From positions 12,034 to 76,033 of the forward strand of contig JBBTYP010000003.1 of assembly GCA_038061715.1 (NCBI GenBank): 64,000 nucleotides of DNA. The letters are read 5' to 3'. A model generated the notes under the pieces. The model was given only the letters and a program-made list of their open reading frames with translations. It did no database searches and was not told the origin of the DNA. The position numbers and the translations under genes were made by a program. This DNA is from Patescibacteria group bacterium. GTDB taxonomy: Bacteria > Patescibacteriota > Minisyncoccia > Phycocordibacterales > UBA918. Below, piece by piece: positions 2,171 through 38,367 of the stretch. Within the stretch, counting starts at the first letter, position 1. Every line of letters starts with the position of its first letter.

Positions 2171-3484
2171 TTAGAACAAGTCGTCACTGGTGACACTAGC
2201 GGAACGCTTATTGTAGTTGATTGAACGCTTTTGAAAGAAGTCGACATGCTTAGTGGCAATCACTTCGGCGTCAAACCAATCGGTCTCCTCTAAGAGAGCG
2301 TCACTGACTTCGAAGATGCGCGGCATTCCAATAGAAGCCAATGAGTTGTTAAAGCGATGTTTAATGAACTCTTTTACGTTCGCCGCTGGCATGAAGCTGA
2401 GCTCGCCCGCCTCGTAAATCCAGTCAACAATACTACTCTCCGCTTCGTAGGCTTCCCTACAAGCAGTAACGACCCGGTCGCGACAGTCTTGATCAAACCA
2501 TTCGGGATGCTCTTCCTTAATGATGTTGATGACGTCAATCCCAAACATCCCGTGAAGGTTTTCTTCTTTTGAGGTAGCCTCTACCGCATTTGAAATACCC
2601 TTGAAGAGATTTCGGTGTTTGTTAAATGACATTATGATCAAAAACTGAGAAAAGAGTGACACGTGCTCGACAAATAGAGAGAAGAGCATGACTGATTGGA
2701 AATAATCCTTATTTTCTTGGGTTCGGGAGAGTTCAATCACCTTTTCTAAGTAGTCCATTCGTTGCTGAATGACTGGTATGTCTTTGATCTTTTTGAATTC
2801 GTCATTGAGGCCCAAGATCTCCAGCAAGTGGGCGTAGGCATCGGCGTGACGCACCTCCGATTCAGAGAAAGTGGCTCCGACGGCACCGATTTCTGGTTTT
2901 GGCATTTTTTTGTAGATGTCGCCCCAAAAAGTCTTCACTGCTACCTCAATCTGCGCAATCGCTAGCATAGCGTTTTTGATAGCGCCGCGCTCCGCTTCGT
3001 TTACATTAACGTGAAAGTCTTGCACGTCAGACGTGAAGTTAAACTCGGTATGTACCCAATATGAATGACGGATGGCGGTAGTATATTCATAGAGTTCTGG
3101 GTACTCGTAGGGCTTGAAGTTCTGGCGCTTGGCAAAGATATCACGCTCACGTAACTTCTTACGTTCGTTGCGATAGATGATGTAGGCCTTAGCCGTCATG
3201 AAAAAACCCTTCTCCATGAGAGCTTGTTCGACTAAGTCTTGAATTTCTTCCACCGCGGGACTTCCATCGATACATTTGTTGGCTAGTTCACTACCAGTTT
3301 CAGCTGTACCGGCTTGCACACACATGGCGACAACTTTTTTGTGGGCCAGTTCGGCTACTTCGATAGCTGCATCGCGATTGCCTTCGCCTGTTTCGGCCAG
3401 GGCTTTGGCGATGGCGTTCTCAATCTTCACGATATCAAAAGGCCGATGTGAGCCGTCACGCTTTCGAATAGTTTCGATGTTCAT
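2171..3484 (-). CDS. nrdB: Ribonucleotide reductase class I beta subunit (R2) with fused N-terminal ATP-cone domain
   Basis: N-terminus MNIETIRKRDGSHRPFDIVKIENAIAKA...AKAYIIYRNERKK matches ATP-cone (NrdR/NrdA-type); remainder has R2 diiron-site helices (FSESEVRHADAYAHLLE, FVEHVSLFSQF). Confidence 0.8.
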   Translation of the reverse strand: MNIETIRKRDGSHRPFDIVKIENAIAKALAETGEGNRDAAIEVAELAHKKVVAMCVQAGTAETGSELANKCIDGSPAVEEIQDLVEQALMEKGFFMTAKAYIIYRNERKKLRERDIFAKRQNFKPYEYPELYEYTTAIRHSYWVHTEFNFTSDVQDFHVNVNEAERGAIKNAMLAIAQIEVAVKTFWGDIYKKMPKPEIGAVGATFSESEVRHADAYAHLLEILGLNDEFKKIKDIPVIQQRMDYLEKVIELSRTQENKDYFQSVMLFSLFVEHVSLFSQFLIIMSFNKHRNLFKGISNAVEATSKEENLHGMFGIDVINIIKEEHPEWFDQDCRDRVVTACREAYEAESSIVDWIYEAGELSFMPAANVKEFIKHRFNNSLASIGMPRIFEVSDALLEETDWFDAEVIATKHVDFFQKRSINYNKRSASVTSDDLF

Positions 3485-3984
3485 ACCAATAAACTACGTT
3501 AGTAAAAGTAGGATCATCGCGCACGAACGTAATTGGTGGAAGACTGCTGTCTCTACTACAGGCAGCACAATTAGGTTCACAAGCGATGTGGTGAGCTAGC
3601 TAAATTTAATGAGTTGCGAAGAATCGGATGAAAATGACTTGGGTCGTACGATTTGTACGGCGAGGGTTATTTCACTGGACGATAACAAAGCAAATCGTAA
3701 ATTTATCTAGCGTAGGTCGCGACTAACACACCACCATAATGAAATATGGCGTTCTAAACTCGATAGGAGTTTGTGTGTCTTACCTCCGACACACGAGACC
3801 TCGTGTGGTTCCCTTACTATAGCACCGCTAGTTCCTGCTTGGCTATTTTTATGGGTGCCAAACGAGGGCTATTTTGCGTCAACGTATCCTCGAGTGTGTG
3901 GATAAGTTCGATCACCACTCCTATACAAAATAGTTTTGGTTTTTGCCTAGATTTTCAAGTCGCCGAAAGTGTTTCGTGGTATAG

Positions 3985-13733: not shown

Positions 13734-13849
13734 CAGGTAAGTATAGCTGTTTTATTTTGTGGGGGTAAGTAACTAAGCGGAGATGGAGTTGGTCACGAAT
13801 CACTAAGTATATTTGTTCGGCTCCGCCTCCAAATCTACTAAGTGTTCTC

Positions 13850-13951
13850 GAATCTTACAGATTCTGTACACCTTGTCGCTATTTTATTTCTCCTCACTCA
13901 TAAAATTGCTGGCAAGGTCTTGCGAAATGGGTCCCACCCCATTTCTCACCC
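13850..13951. repeat. Copy 1 of a ~90-100 bp intergenic repeat family: palindrome GAATCTTACAGATTC, core ACAAAATAGCTGGCAAGG..CTTGCGAAA, second hairpin, terminal TCACCC
   Basis: Shares order and conserved blocks with 23498-23585 and 23905-23994; hairpin 2 here aaatggg-tcccac-cccattt. Confidence 0.7.
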
Positions 13952-14077
13952 AGCTCGTCTGTTCACTATCGCTCACATGACTGCGCTTTTCAACTCCAGC
14001 CGAACGACGCGCAGGCGTCGTTCTTCCTGGACACCATTAAAACAAAAGCCGCACATACGTGCGACTGATGTTTTATA

Positions 14078-14164
14078 TGGTGTCCAGGACTGGAGTTGAA
14101 CCAGCATGCCCGTGAAGGCGCTACCACCTCAAGGTAGTGCGTCTACCAATTTCGCCACCTGGAC
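14078..14164 (-). tRNA. tRNA-Leu (GAG), type II with long variable arm, CCA encoded
   Basis: RC folds: acceptor GTCCAGG/CCTGGAC, D-arm GCG-AAATTGGTAGA-CGC, anticodon stem CTACC/GGTAG loop TTGAGGT, T-loop TTCAACT. Confidence 0.85.
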
Positions 14165-22999: not shown

Positions 23000-23401
23000 C
23001 TACTTTTTTCGAGTGATAAAACTATCTAAAATAATAGCGGCGGCGGCGGCATCGGTCTGTGCATTCCTCCCTTGAATTCTGATTGCCTGCTGGGTTGAAT
23101 ACTGCTCGGGTTCAAGGTGAATCGGAATACCTTCTGCTAAGGTAAGGTCTGCTATAAATTCTTCCACTGCAGTGTGAATCTTGTTGGCCTGACCAGTATA
23201 GCCAACCGAATGTCCGATGACGACTTCCTGTACGTTCCTCTCGATAATCAAAGACGTTATAGTTTCTAATAACTTACTGTCATTTTTTATCACCCCATGC
23301 GGAAAAGCCATACTGCCTGACTCGTCAGAGAAAGCAATACCAACGTTTTTATGACCATAATCAATACCCATTAATCGCATGTATATGTGACAGCATAGCA
23401 T
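23000..23401 (-). CDS. ruvX: Holliday-junction-resolvase-like YqgF/RuvX
   Basis: MGIDYGHKNVGIAFSD... RNase H-like YqgF signature; true start may be the internal Met (MRLMGIDYG, ~23380). Confidence 0.75.
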   Translation of the reverse strand: MLCCHIYMRLMGIDYGHKNVGIAFSDESGSMAFPHGVIKNDSKLLETITSLIIERNVQEVVIGHSVGYTGQANKIHTAVEEFIADLTLAEGIPIHLEPEQYSTQQAIRIQGRNAQTDAAAAAIILDSFITRKK

Positions 23402-23497
23402 GAAAACAGGCGCACAAAGTATGCATTTTTACGCTCACTTGCCGCATAATACATATGTGATTTTGTATCCTTACGTCACAAACTATCTCATTCGCTC

Positions 23498-23585
23498 GAA
23501 TCTTACAGATTCAGTTCAGGTTGTCGCCATTTTTACAAAATAGCTGGCAACCTCTTGCGAAATGATATTAAGTCATTTCTCACCC
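23498..23585. repeat. Copy 2 of intergenic repeat family (GAATCTTACAGATTC ... ACAAAATAGCTGGCAACCTCTTGCGAAA ... hairpin gaaatga-tattaag-tcatttc ... TCACCC)
   Basis: Conserved blocks identical to copy 1; both hairpins retained through compensatory changes. Confidence 0.7.
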
Positions 23586-23711
23586 CACTCGTTGCGGTCC
23601 TCGGCTACATTTCATTTCGCCTGCGGGCTTCGCCGCGACTCGGTTCAAATCCTATTAAAAGCTACAACGGCAAAGACCCAGAAAGAATGCTCTTTCTGGG
23701 TCTGCCATTGT

Positions 23712-23783
23712 GCTCTCACCAGGAATCGGACCTGGATCACCAATTCCGCAAACTGGTATTCTATCCATTAAACTATGAGAGCG
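23712..23783 (-). tRNA. tRNA-Arg-like with anticodon GCG and non-canonical T-loop (TCCGATT); possibly a pseudogene or unusual isoacceptor
   Basis: RC folds: acceptor GCTCTCA/TGAGAGC, D-arm GTTT-AATGGATA-GAAT (paralogous to tRNA-Arg TCT at 16480), anticodon stem CCAGT/ATTGG loop TTGCGGA; C at position 55. Confidence 0.5.
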
Positions 23784-23904
23784 ATGGGAGGGATGTTACC
23801 ACAAGAAATAAGGCGCGTCACCCCCTTACTTAGACAAATCAGTACTTATATGGAAGCCAGCTTATATGTATAGTGCGAATGCAGTTTAAGGATGTTTACA
23901 TACA

Positions 23905-23994
23905 GGGGGCAAGTACACCTTGTCGCTATGTTTGTTCGTAAACTCACAAAATAGCTGGCAAGGCCTTGCGAAAGTCTCCCAGACTTTCTCACCC
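23905..23994. repeat. Copy 3 of intergenic repeat family (lacks 5' palindrome; GTACACCTTGTCGCTATG ... ACAAAATAGCTGGCAAGGCCTTGCGAAA ... hairpin gaaagtc-tccca-gactttc ... TCACCC)
   Basis: Abuts stop codon of minus-strand gene 23994-24464. Confidence 0.65.
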
Positions 23995-24464
23995 TAGAAA
24001 CCGAATAATTCAAGCACCTTCAAAAACAAAGGTTCATGAATGACTTCTTCAGGCAGGCGCTGCTCTAAGATACTTTCCACGTCATCAATGTGTTCGGGTG
24101 GGATTGGTAATACTAAAAGTGGTATGGATTTGCGGTGAGTGCGAATTAAGAGTTGCGGCCCACGCGGATCTTCCTCATCAAGGTGGTAAGCGTCGAGAGT
24201 TGAATAAGGAAACAGCTCATCCTCTACCTTCACTCCTCGCACACTAACACCATAGGGCACAATCGACGGTCTTTGCGCTGCCGACATCCCTAACACTCCG
24301 CCGGCGAGTCCTAATAAAAGGGCAAACATAACATTATCAAGTAGAATCGCAGTAACGACACAAGCGATTACAACTACTGCCAACGCCAAAAACCAGTCGT
24401 TGCCTTTTTCGACATGGTGATGTTGCGGTGCTTCCCAAAATATTCCCCGAACAGCTGGTTCCAT
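23994..24464 (-). CDS. Hypothetical membrane protein (2 TM helices plus possible bacterial PH-like domain)
   Basis: Start moved to internal ATG (MEPAVRG...) because the longer ORF would run up to the tRNA-Ser gene; TATTAT box directly upstream. Confidence 0.4.
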   Translation of the reverse strand: MEPAVRGIFWEAPQHHHVEKGNDWFLALAVVVIACVVTAILLDNVMFALLLGLAGGVLGMSAAQRPSIVPYGVSVRGVKVEDELFPYSTLDAYHLDEEDPRGPQLLIRTHRKSIPLLVLPIPPEHIDDVESILEQRLPEEVIHEPLFLKVLELFGF

Positions 24465-24565
24465 TTGTTTTATAATATCACAAAGCCAGTGTACATTTTG
24501 ACCAAGTTCTGTTACTATCTCGCGACAAACGACCGCCAGCAACCACTGCTGTCGGAAGCACATAC

Positions 24566-24652
24566 GGAGGGATGGCTGAGTGGTTGAAGGCGGCGGTCTT
24601 GAAAACCGTTAAGGGTGAAAGCTCTTCGAGGGTTCGAATCCCTCTCCCTCCG
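24566..24652 (+). tRNA. tRNA-Ser (TGA), type II
   Basis: Acceptor GGAGGGA/TCCCTCC, D-arm GCT-GAGTGGTTGAA-GGC, anticodon loop CTTGAAA, long variable arm, T-arm GAGGG-TTCGAAT-CCCTC. Confidence 0.85.
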
Positions 24653-24837
24653 CGAGTACAAAATAGCGCCTTTAGGTGCTTTTTTGTTCGCGGAGGGAGG
24701 CCTAGCTTTTCTCTAGAAAAGTGTCAGGCGGATTCGAAAAGGTTGCCAGCCCGGTTATGAACGAAGTGAAATAACCGAGCGACAACCTGTACTGAACATG
24801 TAATGTTCGAATCCTGGACAGGCCGTGAGTACAAAAT

Positions 24838-24861
24838 AGCGCCCGTATGGGCGCTTTTTTG
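24838..24861. terminator. Bidirectional intrinsic terminator (agcgccc-gtat-gggcgct-tttttt) preceded by motif gagtacaaaatagcgcc that also occurs at 24655
   Basis: Perfect 7-bp GC stem with T6 on plus strand and A-tract on the other side. Confidence 0.65.
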
Positions 24862-24880
24862 TTTGCTTGTTTGAGCTGAA

Positions 24881-27529
24881 CTACTTTTGGTAAATTGTCA
24901 TTGTGCCAGCACTAGGAGCAGTGGTGGTGAGAATTTCGCCCGTCTTAATGGTTACATCAGATAGGTTTCCAGCTGTGACGGAAGCGGTTGAGTAAGAAAT
25001 TCCGTAGGTTCCAGCGGGAAGGTTCCCGACTGTGAAACTTCCTGATCCAGTTGTCTTGACCACAACCACATACTTACCGTCTTTGTTAATAAAGGCTATC
25101 GCTTGTTTACCACTATTAGTAGTAGTGGCTCCGATGCGAACGGCTCCTTTGCGCACGTACTTAAATACTTGGGCAAGTTGTGGGGTTGCGTTAGCTAGCG
25201 TAATAATCGCATTTTGTGGATTCGCAATATTTGCTCTTAGGTAGTAACCCCCGTTGTCTTGGAGCGTAGTTTTTTGGGCTAGACCCCATTGTTGCCAAGA
25301 AGAAACGTTACCGATTGTGAGATCCTCCCATAGCTGATCAATACCAGCTCCGACTTTTTCTAACATCGCTGTTTTTAAGTTACTTGCCTTAGCAGTATTA
25401 GCAATACTCTGAATAGTCGAAACCTGTTGTGAGCCGTAACGGTGATACGCCAGTACGTCGAGCGATGAGATAATCCCTGCCACCTTTATCATGTCGTTAA
25501 AATACGGCAAGGTGTTCGCTTCGTTGGTGACGGACGGAGCGATGTACTCTGGATTAAATCCATTCGCACTCAATTTGCTTTTTACTGCCATCATTCCGTC
25601 ACCGAGTTGTTTACCTCTCCAACTCAAACTGTTTTCTGGTTCAAGATTGACTTCAAACGCATCGGGGGTAATTCCATATTTGTCGCGCATGTGGATGAAG
25701 AAGGCGAGGATTAATTCTGCAAACTCGTTTGGGTTGTTGGCGTGACTCAAAGAACCTTGTGAGCCCGTACCAAAATCAACATAGTTAATGTTTACATAAG
25801 GTTTCTCACCCTGCTTAGCCAATTCAGTCTTCATTGGTAACAGCAGATGTTCTACTTGGTAATCAAAGTATGAGAACTGGATCCCTGCCGCCGAAAGTGA
25901 ATTTGGATCGTTGTTATCATTAATTTTTTCGTAGTAACGGCCTTGAGTCTCTGTGTATGTCATTTGACCGTTAACAAAGCGGGGCCAGTAATCAACTGGG
26001 TTCTCCATTCCGCTGGTTATCTCTAATCGAACTCCGTTGAGGCCAGCCTTATTTACGAGCGCTGCTGCTACTGCTGTGTCATTCGCTATTCGAGAACCAT
26101 CGTAACGGTTATTTGCTTTGTCGATATCCCAACCTCGGTTCATTACCATCCAGGTGTCTATGGTTTGGAATTTACTACTTGGATTTATGTTAATAGTGGC
26201 AGAAGTCGGAGTTGGTGTTGGGGTAGGTGTAGGGGTAGGTGTTGGTGTTGGTGTTGGAGTCGGTACTGGTGCAGGCGGAGTTGTGTTCCCTCCCGAGACC
26301 CGGGTGAGAAACTCTTCCGCACTCCAACCATCAAGTCCGGCAGCGTAGTCGATTTTCCACCACCAAATATTGTTGGCGTACGATGGGCCTCCAACTACTG
26401 TTCCTGTCGAGCCCTTTGGTTGATATCCGAGCCATTGTCCATAAGCAAGAGTACGAACCGAAAGCTGATTACTAGTTACGGTAACCTTGTCTTGAAGAGT
26501 AAACTTGGTACTCAAAGGAACTCTATCTGATGTTTGTGGGCTTTCTAACACTAAGGAAAGGAAGTTCTCGGCGCTCCAACCATCTGCTCCCGAATCGTAA
26601 TCGACTTTTCGCCACCATAGGTTGTTGGTGTAAGTTGGACCACCAACAATAGTTCCTCGCATATGCCGATTTTGAGATCCGATTTGATTACCGTTGGCCG
26701 CGTCACGCACCAAGAGCGGTGCGTCTACCGTGACCGCACGGTCGTTAAGTTGAAATTTACTGCTCCCGACTGGTGTAGTTGATGGTGGGGTATCAATAAC
26801 AGGGGGTAGTGTTGTCGGTGTTGGTTTTGGAGTTGGGGTTGGAGTTGGGGTTGGGGATGGGGTCTCTACTGGTACTGGTAATGGTGTCGGTTCTGGTGTC
26901 GGTTTCGGGGTTGGGGTCTCTGTTGGGGTTGGCGTAGCGGTAGGGCTAGGAGCTGGAGTTGTTTCTCCGATCTTTTCAAAGCGTACAGCATCAACCGACA
27001 CATTGGACATAGTGCCAGTTAAGGCCGTAAAGCTAACGCTGGCTTCCTTAGTAGCCGAAAAAGTGTAGTCGCCGTGGAGTATCCACTGCCCACCTCCACT
27101 GCGCTCTGAGAAGTTTTTTTCTGCCACACCGTTGGCGTGAGTCACTGAAACCGGCACTTTATCAGCATATTTTTCGTTGCTCACGTAACGTACCGATACT
27201 CGGTAAAGACCGTCGCTTGGAAGGGTGGTGAAGAAAGTAAAGTTCCGCGTTGGGTTACTTCCAACCCACTCGGTATAAAAGTCGGAACCATAGTAACCCG
27301 AGGAAGGGGTATCATTACTCTCCCATTTCCCACCGTCTCTTCTAGTGTGAGCGGTATCGTTGTTATCAATAACAATGGGTGAGGATTGAGAATTAGAAAC
27401 GGCAGCCGCCTGGGTATTTGTGTCATCGGTAACAGTCAGCGGCGCTGTGTCAGTCTTAAAGAAGACATAGGCTCCGACCGCAATCAGAACGAGAACAAAT
27501 AATAATAGGCTGATGGTTTTTTTACTCAT
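24881..27529 (-). CDS. Large secreted multi-domain protein: N-terminal beta-rich domain, PT-rich linkers, two SH3-like ~45-aa repeats, C-terminal GH-A clan glycoside-hydrolase-like domain (NEP motif)
   Basis: 882 aa; signal peptide; repeats GTIVGGPTYTNNLWWRKVDYDSGADGWSAENFL and GTVVGGPSYANNIWWWKIDYAAGLDGWSAEEFL; PTPTPT linkers; FEVNLEPENS. Confidence 0.5.
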   Translation of the reverse strand: MSKKTISLLLFVLVLIAVGAYVFFKTDTAPLTVTDDTNTQAAAVSNSQSSPIVIDNNDTAHTRRDGGKWESNDTPSSGYYGSDFYTEWVGSNPTRNFTFFTTLPSDGLYRVSVRYVSNEKYADKVPVSVTHANGVAEKNFSERSGGGQWILHGDYTFSATKEASVSFTALTGTMSNVSVDAVRFEKIGETTPAPSPTATPTPTETPTPKPTPEPTPLPVPVETPSPTPTPTPTPKPTPTTLPPVIDTPPSTTPVGSSKFQLNDRAVTVDAPLLVRDAANGNQIGSQNRHMRGTIVGGPTYTNNLWWRKVDYDSGADGWSAENFLSLVLESPQTSDRVPLSTKFTLQDKVTVTSNQLSVRTLAYGQWLGYQPKGSTGTVVGGPSYANNIWWWKIDYAAGLDGWSAEEFLTRVSGGNTTPPAPVPTPTPTPTPTPTPTPTPTPTSATININPSSKFQTIDTWMVMNRGWDIDKANNRYDGSRIANDTAVAAALVNKAGLNGVRLEITSGMENPVDYWPRFVNGQMTYTETQGRYYEKINDNNDPNSLSAAGIQFSYFDYQVEHLLLPMKTELAKQGEKPYVNINYVDFGTGSQGSLSHANNPNEFAELILAFFIHMRDKYGITPDAFEVNLEPENSLSWRGKQLGDGMMAVKSKLSANGFNPEYIAPSVTNEANTLPYFNDMIKVAGIISSLDVLAYHRYGSQQVSTIQSIANTAKASNLKTAMLEKVGAGIDQLWEDLTIGNVSSWQQWGLAQKTTLQDNGGYYLRANIANPQNAIITLANATPQLAQVFKYVRKGAVRIGATTTNSGKQAIAFINKDGKYVVVVKTTGSGSFTVGNLPAGTYGISYSTASVTAGNLSDVTIKTGEILTTTAPSAGTMTIYQK
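26821..26960. repeat. Tandem imperfect hexanucleotide repeats (ggtgtt/ggggtt units) encoding PT linker; similar tract at 26207-26268
   Basis: Direct reading of sequence; encodes PTPTPTP on minus strand. Confidence 0.8.
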
Positions 27530-30850: not shown

Positions 30851-30872
30851 TCACTATCATATATGATAGTGA
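30851..30872. promoter_or_regulatory. 22-bp perfect palindrome TCACTATCATATATGATAGTGA (copy A); putative operator or recombination site
   Basis: 20-bp core repeated exactly at 38265-38284. Confidence 0.5.
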
Positions 30873-30882
30873 CCGATTATTT

Positions 30883-31377
30883 TTATTTCAGATAACTGTC
30901 GAAATAGATTGCATGGCAAGTATACCCTCCCGCATTTTTTTGCAAGTAATCCTGGTGGTAATCTTCAGCTGGCCAAAAGCGAGTTAATGGTTCTAGGGTA
31001 GTCACGACTGGACCTTGCCACCGCTCTGATTCGTTTACAATCTCTATCATCTCTTCCGCTGTTTTTTTCTCTTCATCGTTGGCATAGAAAATGGCCGACC
31101 GATATGAAGTTCCTTTGTCGTTTCCTTGTTGATTGAAAGTAGTTGGATTATGAATCTGAAAAAAGAAATCCAGAAGATTTTTGTATGAAGTTACTGTCGG
31201 GTCATAGGTAATCTCCACTGCCTCGGCGTGCCCAGGATGAAATTCGTAAGTTGGGTTTTCATTTTTCCCTCCGGCGTAGCCAGCTTCCGTGTCGATGACC
31301 CCGGGTTGGGTGCGAAGGAGATCTTCGAGTCCCCAGAAGCAGCCGCCAGCCAGTACAGCTTTTTTGAGTTCAGTCAT
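30883..31377 (-). CDS. msrA: Peptide methionine sulfoxide reductase A
   Basis: [15 protein letters not shown] active-site motif. Confidence 0.9.
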
Positions 31378-32820: not shown

Positions 32821-32947
32821 CCCTTCCTTACCTTGTCATACAGGTTCTGCAAACTTCGGTTTCTAGATTAATAAATGACATAAGGCTCACACTGCCTAGT
32901 TATTTTCAAACGCTGCCCATCATATAATAAAAGGACCGTTTTATTTT

Positions 32948-34844: not shown

Positions 34845-34866
34845 AGAATTAACCGAGCAAAAATAT

Positions 34867-34940
34867 CCGCCCTTAGCTCAGTCGGTAGCTTGGGGAGCAT
34901 CCCATGCTTCCCAACCCTTGATTAAGGAGATGGGTCGATA
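34867..34940 (+). pseudogene. Truncated/rearranged copy of tRNA-Lys 5' half (22 nt identical to tRNA-Lys 5' end, 26-nt hairpin insertion, retained anticodon-loop segment, no T-arm)
   Basis: ccgcccttagctcagtcggtag + cttggggagcatcccatgcttcccaa + cccttgattaaggagatgg, compared with the intact gene 27 bp downstream. Confidence 0.6.
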
Positions 34941-34960
34941 TAAATTAAGGAAGAATATTT

Positions 34961-35033
34961 CCGCCCTTAGCTCAGTCGGTAGAGCGGCTCCCTTTTAAGG
35001 AGATGGTCCCAGGTTCGAGCCCTGGAGGGCGGA
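34961..35033 (+). tRNA. tRNA-Lys (TTT)
   Basis: Acceptor CCGCCCT/AGGGCGG (C1-G72), D-arm GCTC-AGTCGGTA-GAGC, anticodon loop CTTTTAA, T-arm CCAGG-TTCGAGC-CCTGG. Confidence 0.8.
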
Positions 35034-35050
35034 CAAGTGAAAAGCCCCAG

Positions 35051-35108: not shown

Positions 35109-37655
35109 CTACGGATTACTTGGTACTGGAACCAGTCTTGGGTTCGCTAACCAAGAGAAGCTAGAATACATTCTGATCTGTTGGCCGTTTCCTAGATCAC
35201 CGCCCGAACAATTGAGCAAATTATCGATGCAATTTTTACTCCATATATCCATCACGGTATGATCCCAGGCGCCAAACCAATCGGAGTGTAAGGTAGATCC
35301 TGGCGTCATCATGGTTCCGTTGGACATTTTGTCAGAAGACAGATACCAGCTTGGCAGATTGGCATCACTGGTATACCAGGCACCCAGGGTGAAGGTTGGA
35401 ATTACGTAAGGGTGGGTTGATGGACACTGGGCATAACCCTGACCAATGTAGCTTGAGTAGGCGACGTGAGAACGGTGGTTAGCACTATCGAGGTTTTTAC
35501 CGTCCCAACATTCTGGTGCGCTCAGTACCGCACCGATCTGGCTTCCAACGGGGCAGTTAAGTCTAGCTTTGTCGAGATCCGCATAGTGTCCTGACACCGC
35601 ACCGTTACCAATACAATTGAAGTAGCCAGCTCCTGTTGGTTTGGTGCCGCTGACCATGTCGTATCCGAAGACAAAACGTAGTCCACGAGGCAGGTCTACA
35701 CAACCCATCGCTCCAATCTTGGTACAAAGGGGATCAGTCTTAGGTCGTCGTTTGTAGTAAATACTGATGTAATCAGGTTTTACTACATTACCCTTACCAT
35801 CAAGCATGGCCGGCATCCAGTAGGCTGACCGGTTGAGTGGACTCATACAGGTACTATTACCAGTTCTCCGCAAGCTGTCATAAGTTGAGTTTGCATTGGC
35901 CAGAGTATTACCAAAGAATTGATGTAGGTGTGACTTACCGGGTTGTCCAGGGTAGACAATTGGATCATCGTAAATGAGTTGTCCAGCATTACAGATAAAA
36001 CGGAAGGCTCCAACTACGTCTGGTTTTGCGCTGGCTGGGATAGCTCCCGTTCCCCAAGAGGGGACCAGTTCAGAGCTCACGGTAAAGTTACTAGCAATTG
36101 CTGCCAGCTCAACCCCAGGAGGGATTCCACTAGGAGTTGGCGTCGGAGTAGGGGTTGGGGTTGGGGTGGGTTCTGGTGTCGGGGCTGGGATTGGGGTTGG
36201 GGTAGGAGTTGGAATTGGAGTACCCGCCAACAAGGCGTCAATGACTGGCTTGTAGACACGTGAGAGTTTTACCTGACCTCCTTCACCAACTCCTTGGGTA
36301 CTGTCAGTCGGATGAACTCCATCTTGGTAGAGGGTCTTATCTGCTGCCGCCACATCTGGTCCCATCGGGGTAGTACCGCCAAAATCAATAACGGCATCAA
36401 TCTTTTTTCCAACTTGGGCTTTCAGCAAAAGATTGACCTCGGCTCTCCTTTTATTAAAATTGGTATTGTTTAGAGTATTGTTTGTCCCTGGGACAGCTTG
36501 TGGCAATACTGTTCCCACGGCCACCTTGGCCCCTCCAGTCTTAATCGGTTCGATGTATGTAAGGAGTGCGTCAACGTAGGCTTGTGCGCTGGAATAGTTA
36601 AGTAATCCGTTGGCACCGACCAAAACCGAGAATACCTTGGGTTTCGCATTAAGAACTAGTTGCCGTCTGGCAGTCATAGCATTTATATCCGAACCGCCGA
36701 CAGCCAGTCCTTTGAAGGTGATGTCAGTTCGGGAACTAGAGTAAATCCCCGTGTAATTACCTCCCCAAAAAACCGATATACTGTCACCTTCCGCTACCAC
36801 TACTGGCTTACCAGAAGTAGTCGGGGCTGGTTCTGGAGCTGGAGCTGGAGTCGGGGTAGGAGTTGGAGTTGGATCTGGGTCCGGATTAGGTAGTGGGGTC
36901 GGTGTAGGGGCTGGTTTTGAGGAGCCTCCTCCTCCGCCGCCTGTACTAGTGCTGTCATTTGTTACCGTCACCTTGGTTGACCTAACTACAGTAGTGCCTT
37001 TAGCCAGACAACTTAGAGTATAAGTGAAAGTGCCCACTCTTCGCGCCTTGATTGTTTTGCTGCCGCTTTTAGGTTGGGTTCTGGACCAACTTCCAGAAGC
37101 CTTGCAAGAACTTACATTGAAGGCATTCCAACGTAGGACGAAGTTTTTACCTTTCTGAACGGTAGCTGGTGAAGCATATATTACAATTAAGGGCTCAGCT
37201 GTAATCCCGGCCGTCAAGGCTCTCATGGAGGCACTGTACGGTACGTTATAGGCTTGATCTGGAGATTTCGCCAAGTATTGGGAGTGTTCTTGGGTTAAGA
37301 AAAAAGCTGTTTGCTCATCAATAGCTCCTGACACCCTAATATTGTTATCGGTTTGGAACTTACGGACAGCGGCTTCGGTAAGTGGGCCGAAGTACCCCGT
37401 CGGAGAAACTCTTAGATAGTCCAAGTTGTGGAGAAACAACTGCATTCGAGCCACCTCAGTCGTTTCAAAACCAAAGGAAATCGGAAGTGCTTGTATGCCT
37501 TCAGATGTATCAAGTGCAACCGGTTCGGTGTGAACCACGCCGTTGTGGGCAAACGCAACCGAACTAGTAAGGAAGGACAAAAGAACAAAAGTTACAATCC
37601 TATTACTTAGAGTCTTCATGTAAATAAGCTTTATTTTAATAGTAATTAACAGCAT
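35109..37655 (-). CDS. Large secreted multi-domain protein: peptidoglycan-binding domain, SGNH/GDSL-type hydrolase domain, PT linkers, Cys/Trp-rich C-terminal domain of unknown function
   Basis: 848 aa; signal peptide; PG_binding_1-like [27 protein letters not shown]; [15 protein letters not shown] (GDS block I of SGNH hydrolases); PTPTPT linkers. Confidence 0.5.
36133..36225. repeat. Tandem imperfect hexanucleotide repeats encoding PT linker (second tract at 36828-36950)
   Basis: ggggttggggttggggtgggttctggtgtcggggctggga... direct reading. Confidence 0.8.
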
Positions 37656-37674: not shown

Positions 37675-38367
37675 CTAAATCCCCAATATCCACTCCTCCA
37701 GCGCCCCGTCCAAATCCCGCTTCCCTTGGTGGGCTAGGTGGTAGAGTTCAAGCAGTGACCGTGACAAGGCCTCGACTTCCCCATCTTTAAAATTACGGAG
37801 CGACTGAGTAGCCTTTTTGTAGGGGTAGTCTTTCATACCAGCCTCCTTTGCACTTCTGCTTAACTTCGCTAGTCGAAGCGATTTGAGCTGCCACCAGAGC
37901 AGGCCGATGGTTTCTTCGTCGCGGACTCCGGCCGCACGAGCTTCCTGGAGCAAGACCCATAGTTGTTTTTTGTCCTTCTTCGCCAGAGCTTCGGTGATAG
38001 CAAAGCGATTGAAATCAGTGGCCTTCGTGGCGGTAAATTCTTCAATCTCAGTGGCCTGCTTGGAATACTTCTTTTTTTTGTCGGCGAGAAGCGGACCTTC
38101 AAGGACGATGAAGATATTATGTGAAGCAGCCAGCTCGGCCAGGGTGCCAAAAATCTCTGATTCAAAATCCTCATCACCAGATGGTGTGTCGAGCAAAAAA
38201 CACTCCTTACCGCCAAACAGCGAACTGGCGCCCACCGCGCTTGCCACCAAGCCTAGTTTATATTCACTATCATATATGATAGTGGGAGATACTTCGAATT
38301 TATCTATCTCGGTTTGAGCTCTGTCCCTAATTGCCCTTCTGTCTGTTCCGTAAAAAACTGCGAGCAT
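37675..38367 (-). CDS. holA: Putative DNA polymerase III delta subunit (HolA-like, short)
   Basis: N-terminus MLAVFYGTDRRAIRDRA... resembles HolA LYLLYGEE... start; located 1 nt after polA stop; only 230 aa. Confidence 0.4.
   Translation of the reverse strand: MLAVFYGTDRRAIRDRAQTEIDKFEVSPTIIYDSEYKLGLVASAVGASSLFGGKECFLLDTPSGDEDFESEIFGTLAELAASHNIFIVLEGPLLADKKKKYSKQATEIEEFTATKATDFNRFAITEALAKKDKKQLWVLLQEARAAGVRDEETIGLLWWQLKSLRLAKLSRSAKEAGMKDYPYKKATQSLRNFKDGEVEALSRSLLELYHLAHQGKRDLDGALEEWILGI
38264..38284. promoter_or_regulatory. Second copy of palindrome TCACTATCATATATGATAGTG, inside holA N-terminal coding region
   Basis: Exact 21-nt match to 30851-30871. Confidence 0.5.

Follow-up and report, generated by a model that had tools for sequence, protein, structure and literature searches.

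What is the repeated sequence that lies on either side of a tRNA-Arg gene in a 64-kb stretch of DNA from a Patescibacteria group bacterium (contig JBBTYP010000003.1, positions 12,034 to 76,033; hereafter the window), and how did it come to be there? Patescibacteria (the candidate phyla radiation, CPR) have very small, streamlined genomes, and their RNA biology is little understood. A sequence-only reading of the window had noted the repeat and proposed that tRNA gene, spacer and repeat form one duplicated module. The repeat itself is real: its core, GCTGGCAANNNCTTGCGAAA, occurs three times in the 64-kb window against an expectation of 0.16, similarity among the copies spans ~100 nt, beyond the core, and a covariance model (R1) places four copies within the window, one beyond those first noted. 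On balance, and with little better than even confidence, we regard it as a Patescibacteria-specific, non-coding, non-autonomous structured interspersed element that spreads by copy-and-paste and belongs to the broad class that takes in repetitive extragenic palindromic sequences and their doublets (REPs and REPINs), Rickettsia palindromic elements (RPEs) and the miniature transposable elements with inverted repeats known as MITEs.

A repeat family found in many Patescibacteria

The exact pattern CTGGCAANNNCTTGCGAAAN{6,30}TTTCTCAC, scanned over one genome per species, was found in 100 stretches. Labels within the Patescibacteria (Kaiserbacteria, Paceibacteria, Parcubacteria, Nomurabacteria, Saccharibacteria, Yonathbacteria, Elulimicrobium and 'Patescibacteria group') stand on 71 of the 80 stretches listed; five are unclassified, and four lie on contigs of metagenome-assembled genomes (MAGs) labelled otherwise, contigs that we suspect are mis-binned Patescibacteria. 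Several genomes contributed four to eight loci each. The sequence analysed further, 695 kb in all, comprises loci of ~8 kb (numbered with an L) together with the window, and R1 finds 137 copies in it: ~1 extra copy per 19 kb beyond the copy by which each locus was ascertained, ~1 per 15-20 kb overall, and four in the 64 kb of the window. Extrapolated from this density to an assumed genome of ~1 Mb, the figure is ~50 copies per genome. One locus (L024) holds a tandem array of three identical 160-nt units.

There were no element matches among 2.9 million viral contigs. Across the window Rfam 15 reported only tRNAs above the gathering threshold and, at E up to 10 around all copies, nothing credible on the element; neither ARAGORN nor Rfam placed a tRNA, tmRNA or tRNA-like gene on its + strand; and the element was not found, by topic or by sequence, in searchable papers. 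With the same core in MAGs labelled Kaiser-, Pacei-, Nomura-, Yonath- and Saccharibacteria, it appears to be a previously uncatalogued genome component. The four contigs with other labels (L002, L035, L079 and L067) are from MAGs labelled Acidimicrobiales, Azotimanducaceae and Patiriisocius, and the first three bear Joint Genome Institute (JGI) Ga05356xx scaffold names.

Three hairpins with compensating changes

Twenty-four positions are invariant by construction of the search pattern, and our statements on conservation use the other positions. In alignments of 101 and of 44 copies the element, 77-103 nt long, has the order P1, a junction CUGUWCA, P2, UCUU, P3 and a final C. P1 is a stem of 5-6 bp with a UAC-centred loop, commonly CUUC-UUACA-GAAG. 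P2 is long: its base, SS-UUGUCGC, pairs with GCUGGCAA-SS and includes a U.G pair and a bulged U, its tip varies in length, and its internal motif UUGUCGC/GCUGGCAA is invariant. P3 pairs UGCGAAA with UUUCUCA around a C/U mismatch, with a conserved base and a variable, compensating tip, and the 3' end of the element is sharp, at ...UUUCUCAC.

The pairing is upheld by covariation. It holds in 91.8% of cells, as against 37-50% when partners are slid by 1-3 columns, and compensatory double changes occupy 178 cells as against 48±6 in shuffled alignments (0 of 500 shuffles reach 178). A swap of GG:CC to CC:GG is seen at the base of P2 in about half of the copies, and P1 pairs have changed on both sides in 17-21 of 44 sequences.

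The folding strand is probably the + strand of window copies 1-3. Against shuffles, copies 1-4 fold with z of -6.3, -5.7, -3.5 and -4.6 on the strand stated below (+ for copies 1-3), and with -3.9, -3.8, -2.3 and -1.9 on the complement; beside these values the preference in minimum free energy (MFE) over 101 copies is weaker, at 61:39, and G.U and A.C mismatches in the variable stems are about equal (~27:27), and for this reason we hold the strand to be only probable. The four window copies are as follows.

13850-13950, + strand: element copy 1 (R1 85.1 bits, E 2e-19; fold z -6.26); P1 is GAATC-TTACA-GATTC, P2 is CCTTGTCGC...GCTGGCAAGG, P3 is GCGAAATGGG...CCCATTTC and the terminus is ...TTTCTCAC
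23498-23584, + strand: element copy 2 (R1 85.0 bits; fold z -5.65); base of P2 GG/CC-swapped (GGTTGTCGC...GCTGGCAACC), P2 tip short, P3 tip different
23895-23993, + strand: element copy 3 (R1 68.1 bits; fold z -3.5; alignment with relatives); ...GATGTTTAC in place of the 5' strand of P1, and a 3' end that abuts the stop codon of the minus-strand open reading frame (ORF) 23994-24563
24722-24808, - strand: element copy 4, a diverged 'T-arm' variant (R1 50.3 bits, E 1e-10; fold z -4.6); P1 (GAACA-TTACA-TGTTC) and P2 intact, T-loop-like TTCGAATCC in place of P3

Occupied and empty sites

Evidence that the element inserts comes from related loci with and without it. Relatives in which RuvX is 78-84% identical have tRNA-Ser, the ORF and tRNA-Arg(GCG) in this same order, with ruvX further on. 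The orthologous site is empty in L101 – ORF stop codon, 50 nt, tRNA, and no copy 3 – while in the window, L103 and L104 the element starts straight after the ORF stop codon. Between tRNA-Arg and ruvX the relatives have a DHO_dh gene, where the window has copy 2 and its flank. The orthologous copies of L103, L104 and the window have different P3 tips and different degrees of decay, differences that favour turnover. At ~1300-1700 of L104, between element and tRNA-Arg, stand three tandem units of ~115 nt (GCTCTTGTAAGAAG...CTTCTTTCGAGAGC...GTTCGGAACTTAAATGTAAGCA), another repeat family, as yet uncharacterised, at this tRNA locus.

The subfamily of copies 1 and 2 has flanks that are themselves conserved in at least 12 genomes, upstream as GTCACGAATCACTAAGTATATT...TCTACTAAGTG...CGA and downstream as CCGCCTCGnCTG-hairpin-ACATGnCTGCG. 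The same host unit occurs without the element on the same contigs in L011, L040 and L060 (...TTGCGA|CCCCGGCTCG...). Within the window an exact 22-mer of the copy 1 5' flank occurs once.

In L092 an isoleucyl-tRNA synthetase (IleRS) ORF of 1207 aa contains the element as its reverse complement, with the frame kept over ~28-31 codons. Solved IleRS structures align to ...RDRLKG and resume at ...EDEDIQ, and ~28 residues of the L092 protein are extra. The element can enter essential genes in frame, and its fold is retained long after insertion. Copies are found also at the 5' ends of protein genes, beside 5S rRNA, straight after a stop codon and, in this single case, within a coding sequence. Copies have mixed orientations relative to the genes on either side: 32 are antisense to both of them and 21 are sense to both, and the convergent and divergent arrangements number 16 and 11. 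The element itself has no coding capacity, and clustering of the neighbour proteins of the loci revealed no recurrent transposase, reverse transcriptase (RT) or integrase near the copies.

Duplicated gene ends next to the element

In 20 of 98 copies a duplicate, 16-57 nt long, of the segment just upstream begins exactly after ...TTTCTCAC (CTCAC); in distant control segments the count is 0 of 98. The duplicated segment is always the end of a neighbouring transcription unit. Some duplicates are antisense to the opening ~13 codons of a protein gene and reach its ATG (msrA at L020 and L024; a GH1 glycosidase at L048, L062 and L063; a further case at L093), others to the initial 23 nt of tRNA-Asn with another 7-8 nt (L004, L005, L031, L032, L082) or to the 5S rRNA 5' end (L074); in L075 and L066 the duplicate is the sense of a tRNA 3' end from the T-loop on. 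A gap separates the upstream repeat copy from the element. Homology to the target just past the duplicate is seen in the ~15 nt that precede the element (ATGAGAACGGGTG in L074, GGGGGCCTC(C)TTC in L093), and therefore an intact gene end stands beside a partial copy that the element interrupts. At the junction 1-5 nt can be assigned to either partner; most copies have YC directly on the 3' side and a pyrimidine-rich stretch in front.

Directly upstream of tRNA-Lys (34961-35034) the window has a pseudo-tRNA-Lys at 34860-34953, made up of positions 1-22 (CCGCCCTTAGCTCAGTCGGTAG), a 29-nt GC hairpin (CTTGGGGAGCATCCCATGCTTCCCAACCC) and a copy of the anticodon loop and variable region (TTGATTAAGGAGATGGGTC); it breaks after GGTAG, the site at which the element interrupts the tRNA-Asn pseudo-copies (L004, L005, L031, L032, L082). 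In L005, at 3334-3597, tRNA-Asn(GUU) is split in the anticodon loop (CTGT|...|TAACCGG) by an intron of ~255 nt containing GGTTCAGAGACTA, which looks like a group I intron of type IC3. The intron makes ARAGORN miss this tRNA-Asn, and those of L004 and L031 are likewise missed.

Association with tRNA genes

Thirty-one of 131 copies (24%) lie within 400 nt of a tRNA gene, a class of position that makes up 5.6% of the sequence, so that the enrichment is 4-fold; 28 of the 31 are antisense to the tRNA. Seventeen copies are convergent with the tRNA, 15 of them at 59-141 nt from its 3' end and two at 247 and 314 nt, and 11 tRNA-near copies lie 40-160 nt beyond the tRNA 5' end. The spacers of convergent pairs usually hold a copy of the T-loop, T-stem and acceptor 3' strand of that very tRNA, often split by a GC hairpin. 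The features that accompany the window copies are these.

13792-13849, + strand: family A 5' flank of the copy 1 host unit, GTCACGAATCACTAAGTATATT ... TCTACTAAGTGTTCTC (multi-genome alignment)
13951-13988, + strand: conserved 3' flank of the host unit, CCAGCTCGTCTG-hairpin-ACATGACTGCGC
13989-14036, + strand: inverted partial copy of the tRNA-Leu 3' half
14047-14066, - strand: intrinsic terminator of tRNA-Leu, a hairpin followed by TTTGTTTT
14078-14164, - strand: tRNA-Leu(GAG), convergent with copy 1 (ARAGORN, Rfam)
23585-23709, + strand: spacer 3' of copy 2, with a diverged host-unit flank, T-loop-like GGTTCAAATCC and a hairpin downstream of tRNA-Arg
23710-23782, - strand: tRNA-Arg(GCG) (60.8 bits), orthologous to the tRNA-Arg(GCG) of relatives
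24566-24653, + strand: tRNA-Ser(TGA), its 3' end copied inverted at 24689-24700, beyond its terminator
24805-24866, + strand: partial tRNA 3' fragment (T-loop to 3' end) and duplicate tRNA-Ser trailer/terminator, joined directly to copy 4

The spacer of copy 1 contains an 11-nt T-loop/T-stem segment (TTCAACTCCAG, 13989-13999) and a 12-nt acceptor 3' end including CCA (TCCTGGACACCA, 14025-14036), both exact copies from tRNA-Leu, and between them an inserted 25-nt GC hairpin with a GCAG loop (14000-14024). This partial copy is inverted relative to the real gene, and the pair brackets the terminator at 14047-14066. Around copy 4 the order is tRNA-Ser, its terminator, the inverted copy of the tRNA 3' end (24689-24700), the element on the reverse strand, a tRNA 3' fragment that starts in the T-loop, and then a second trailer and terminator (24805-24866). 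Copy 4 is of a P3-less kind that lies between antisense and sense T-arms in L099, L094, L052, L075 and L037 also, and in which P1 reads GAAC(C)-UUACA-(G)GUUC, that is, T-loop sequence. As judged from these sequences, joining may be favoured at the T-loop common to all tRNA genes, and parts of the element may have evolved from it. The GC hairpins form a second small repeat family: GC-rich, with a GCAG or ACTG loop and flanked by CCGAA...TTCT, they sit between the T-stem and the acceptor strand of partial tRNA copies (window 14000-14024, L026, L094, L060, L009, L035, L068, L095, L028), where their stems differ and stay paired.

These data also bear on the original proposal of a module with an exact spacing of 127 nt. 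The TCACCC ends of copies 1 and 2 are at 13951 and 23585, and the tRNA 3' ends are at 14078 and 23710 by ARAGORN or at 14081 and 23711 by Rfam, giving distances of 127/130 and 125/126 nt. The same convergent arrangement has spacers of 58-141 nt in other genomes. The near-equality in the window arises because copies 1 and 2 occupy the same position of a second conserved unit that is convergent to tRNA genes, and the shared host unit likewise explains why the two spacers look alike and are of similar length: the '127 nt' is a coincidence plus a shared conserved flank. Homology between the spacers, also claimed, is weak on pairwise alignment (global z = 1.95, 14 of 500 shuffles as good, local alignment not significant), but both do begin with a flank, CCnnCTCG...ACATnnCTnCG..., that is found together with the element in 12 or more other genomes. 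As to the T-loop-like block, that of copy 1 exactly copies parts of the adjacent tRNA-Leu, but GGTTCAAATCC beside copy 2 has no match to the adjacent tRNA-Arg. The distances from the element to the next minus-strand gene start, ~116, 96 and 112 nt, hold for the window but are not constant in other genomes. Nor is a duplication of tRNA, spacer and element as one module supported: the adjacent tRNAs differ, the spacing ranges over 58-141 nt, and 100 of 131 copies are more than 400 nt from a tRNA. The two repeats around tRNA-Arg(GCG) are a typical arrangement and no special module.

The sequence-only reading came closer with its suggestion of relics of tRNA-targeted integration, in that there is insertion, a 4-fold enrichment by tRNA genes, and partial tRNA copies alongside. 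A direct repeat of the tRNA 3' part, as expected of a relic attachment (att) site, is present in L075, L066 and at copy 4; most tRNA fragments are inverted or from the 5' part, and the 'island' is just the 90-nt element. The tRNA-Arg(GCG) had been called unusual, and its T-loop does read TCCGATT where the orthologues in L101, L103 and L104 have TTCGATT, a change at the normally invariant U55; the cloverleaf is otherwise normal.

How the element may spread

We infer a mechanism by template switching. In its copy-and-paste spread the element would take the form of a folded single strand, which a trans-acting factor with its gene elsewhere would recognise, and it would join pyrimidine-rich sites (YYYC|YC). 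The precise 3' end, together with the microhomology of 1-5 nt at the 5' junction, would reflect template switching during DNA synthesis, be it by RT, replication or repair. Favoured landing places would be tRNA genes and the ends of other heavily used transcription units, with the T-loop of all tRNA genes as a frequent landing or switch point; and insertions lethal to an essential gene would persist only where the duplicated gene end leaves one intact copy.

Several points weigh against the view of the element as a copy-and-paste repeat, or against this route. Terminal inverted repeats and a target duplication of fixed length are both absent. Some duplicates run past the likely transcription start into a -10-like box (L082, L062), which weakens an origin as complementary DNA (cDNA) of run-off RNA, since on that simple model duplicates should stop where transcripts end. 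The in-frame insertion is a single example (L092). Near-identical cores across differently labelled CPR classes are unusual for selfish repeats. Finally, the fold is kept: in copies of which the flanking duplicate is at least 8% diverged (mean 15-17%), the conserved positions outside the pattern are only 1.3-5.3% off consensus, and 0 of 40 P1 pairs are broken without the aberrant L051, or 3 of 45 with it (Fisher p = 5e-7 and 1e-4, respectively). This can be due either to purifying selection in situ, and hence to a host function, or to homogenisation or replacement, and the former fits at least as well.

Comparison with known systems

Several known identities fail on specific features. A sigma-54 promoter (TGGCAC-N5-TTGC) is excluded by CTGGCAAGGNCTTGC / CTGGCAA-N-CTTGC, the spacing of which is one base short in every copy; a sigma-70 promoter or UP element on the minus strand by the lack of constant-spacing hexamers, scan matches and positional -10 enrichment, and by mixed orientation. 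It is no intrinsic terminator, P3 being followed by CTCACYC on one strand and by CGCAAG on the other, with no U-tract; a terminator scan gave one weak site inside the element (23908-23924, copy 3) against 1.7 expected by chance in the region, and the strong terminators in that scan are those of tRNAs. The boxes of an integron attC (R'', RYYYAAC; R', GTTRRRY) are misfitted by GGCAACC and GTTGTCG, and the copies are dispersed by housekeeping genes. A group I or II intron would be larger than 77-103 nt; there is no Rfam intron match, no catalytic core or domain V, although the reverse strand starts GUGAG, and there is no U.G at the putative splice site and no G at the 3' end. The genuine IC3-like group I intron in the tRNA-Asn of L005 looks quite unlike the element.

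The likeness to REPs and REPINs is one of kind: short, non-coding, imperfect-palindrome intergenic repeats in tens of copies, with compensating changes and possibly a long life. Identity with them is rejected, for the element has three hairpins with conserved junctions and no GTAG/CGTC head, and not one palindrome of 20-40 nt or an inverted doublet of these. Its core is common to MAGs of different class labels, whereas REPs are species-specific; it is tied to tRNA genes and to partial duplicates of gene ends; and in the 8-kb loci and the 64-kb window no family of RAYTs (REP-associated tyrosine transposases) recurs near it. RPEs likewise are structured repeats of ~100 nt in reduced genomes, found between genes, by or in RNA genes and in frame in protein genes, and neither they nor the element have a transposase or a classical target duplication. 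The IleRS of L092 is one case of the in-frame insertion typical of RPEs; the host phyla are unrelated (Patescibacteria versus Rickettsiales), and in-gene copies of the element are rare (1 of ~137). To our knowledge, neither flanking gene-end duplicates nor a tRNA antisense bias has been described for RPEs.

MITEs of the Correia or ERIC-like sort share small size, lack of autonomy, multiple copies and insertion polymorphism between relatives. The element differs from them in being without terminal inverted repeats, a fixed short target duplication or, in the loci examined, a cognate insertion sequence. A DDE-type MITE is specifically rejected, since in the 101-copy alignment the ends NCTTCTTACAG... 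and ...CTTTCTCAC are not reverse complements, and the flanking repeat is present in just 20 of 98 copies and, at 16-57 nt, is not of fixed length. With the ends of IS200/IS605 elements, palindrome-associated transposable elements (PATEs) and TnpB RNA scaffolds the element shares imperfect hairpins in subterminal position, an end that falls sharply just 3' of a hairpin, tetranucleotides resembling TTAC, and asymmetry between the strands. The 'TTAC' model of IS200/IS605 insertion does not hold, however: the empty sites ...TTGCGA|CCCCGG... (L011, L040, L060) and ...TTTTAGG|CTATT... (L101) are without TTAC, P1 with its TTAC is part of the inserted DNA, there are flanking duplicates, and no TnpA or TnpB lies near the copies examined.

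Like tRNA-linked repeats and att relics (rtT of Escherichia coli tyrT; the T-loop sublocation of integrases), the element has partial tRNA 3' copies beside an intact gene, sometimes in tandem. Its partial copies are interrupted by a structured element of 90 nt and do not bound a kb-sized island, many of the tRNA copies are inverted, and the same is seen at protein-gene 5' ends, tRNA-Asn and 5S rRNA. Retroposition with template switching, in the manner of short interspersed nuclear elements (SINEs), would be called to mind by the precise 3' end, the microhomologous 5' junction, the variable duplicates and the link to abundant structured RNAs; here no RT is implicated, some duplicates include the promoter, and the element is inside the duplicated segment and not at its edge. 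We know of no bacterial precedent for retroposition of this sort. Elements of a REP-, RPE- or MITE-like kind are already known; what appears to be undescribed is this family, with its breadth over labelled CPR lineages, its core of three hairpins and its duplicates of gene ends.

Alternatives to a mobile repeat

The alternative that survives best, although we think it unlikely, is a functional structured RNA, or an RNA module built into various small RNAs – a protein-binding handle or ribozyme, for instance – kept by the host. The sequence that follows, antisense to the 5' end of an adjacent gene, tRNA or 5S rRNA or else mimicking a tRNA 3' half, would provide the target of each copy, and mobility would be a by-product of the way in which copies originate. 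Conservation of the junctions and internal loops goes with covariation of the stems, the conserved sites and the pairing of P1 have been kept in copies with duplicates 15-17% diverged, and one strand consistently folds better; family A copies share an upstream box ending TATATT/TATAAT and a downstream terminator, and the combination of element and antisense tRNA-Asn 5' 23 nt recurs in MAGs of different class labels. Set against this are the mixed orientation to neighbouring genes, the absence on either strand of a positional -10 signal upstream and of any sigma-70-type promoter call, and the near-equality of G.U and A.C mismatches (27:27), which is unlike typical RNA-level selection. Decayed or truncated copies exist (window copy 4, L103/L104, L047), presence differs between close relatives, and one copy lies inside an ORF.

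A bolder and rather improbable reading makes the element the core of a new RNA-based system of the Patescibacteria, either a small self-processing or retro-mobile RNA that template-switches beside the genes of abundant RNAs, or a protein-binding scaffold with an antisense-guide 3' extension that arose when the end of an adjacent gene, tRNA or 5S rRNA was duplicated. Either form would account for the boundary at ...CUCAC and its sharpness, for duplicates that begin exactly at it, for the asymmetry between strands and for the conservation of structure in situ.

Slightly more doubtful still is a folded single-stranded DNA site for recombination or nicking, comparable with attC, CTX-phage attP(+)/Xer or the hairpins of Y1 HUH RAYTs, that a chromosomal recombinase or nuclease would read through its shape, an extrahelical base and a few conserved bases. 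It would suit the imperfect palindromes, in which P2 has a constant mismatch and bulge and P3 a constant C/T mismatch in stems that otherwise covary freely, and G.T and A.C are equally tolerated, as for pairing at the DNA level. The sharp 3' boundary just past a hairpin, the TYAC that occurs as TTAC in the loop of P1 and as TCAC at the 3' terminus, and the strand asymmetry of the element are in keeping with it. The empty sites are nonetheless without the TTAC demanded by insertion of the IS200/IS605 type, there are no cassette arrays or R'/R'' boxes, no recombinase or HUH gene recurs nearby, and long variable flanking duplicates are not made by such systems.

Last, and very improbable, is the proposal that came with the first description of the repeat, namely a module for tRNA-trailer processing or for termination, set at one constant distance from the 3' ends of tRNAs and serving the next minus-strand gene also. 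In its favour, 17 of 131 copies converge on a tRNA 3' end, mostly at 59-141 nt, the window copies lie ~96-116 nt upstream of the next minus-strand gene, and co-oriented intergenic positions are the commonest class. Against it, the spacing is variable and 100 of 131 copies have no tRNA close by; a hairpin-plus-T-run terminator of its own lies between each tRNA and the element; the element has no U-tract, its better-folding strand is antisense to the tRNA, and it is absent from the orthologous tRNA-Arg locus of L101.

Whether as the mobile repeat that we prefer or as a functional RNA, the element offers an amenable case, in an uncultivated superphylum, of what may be a new mobile-element mechanism or a new functional RNA. 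It marks tRNA loci as hotspots of small rearrangement, with partial tRNA copies, inverted 3' ends and nested hairpins. As an annotation feature it may explain many 'odd' intergenic regions and pseudo-tRNA fragments in CPR MAGs, and it may serve as a marker for strain-level population genomics.

Other features of the window

The genes that flank the window copies encode a NUDIX protein, RuvX, ribosomal protein L19 and an unannotated 189-aa ORF. RuvX of the window matches at 100% identity an NCBI protein entered as 'MAG: RuvX/YqgF family protein [Patescibacteria group bacterium]'. The start of RuvX is more likely the ATG at 23380 (MRLMGIDYG...) than that at 23401. Several genes (window 13733 and 23380; L020, L093) have a TATACT-like -10 box 6-12 nt before the ATG and no Shine-Dalgarno sequence, an arrangement that suggests leaderless or near-leaderless mRNAs. 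Repeats with a period of 12 nt (GTTGGGGTTGGx) at 26193-26963 and 36130-36921 lie inside large minus-strand ORFs, one of which is an 882-aa Golvesin_C/GH30C protein (24881-27529), and probably encode Pro/Thr/Asn-rich linkers. The palindrome TCACTATCATATATGATAGTGA is present at 30851-30888 and 38264-38301 with 79% identity, and more weakly a third time at 32914; it could be an operator-like site.

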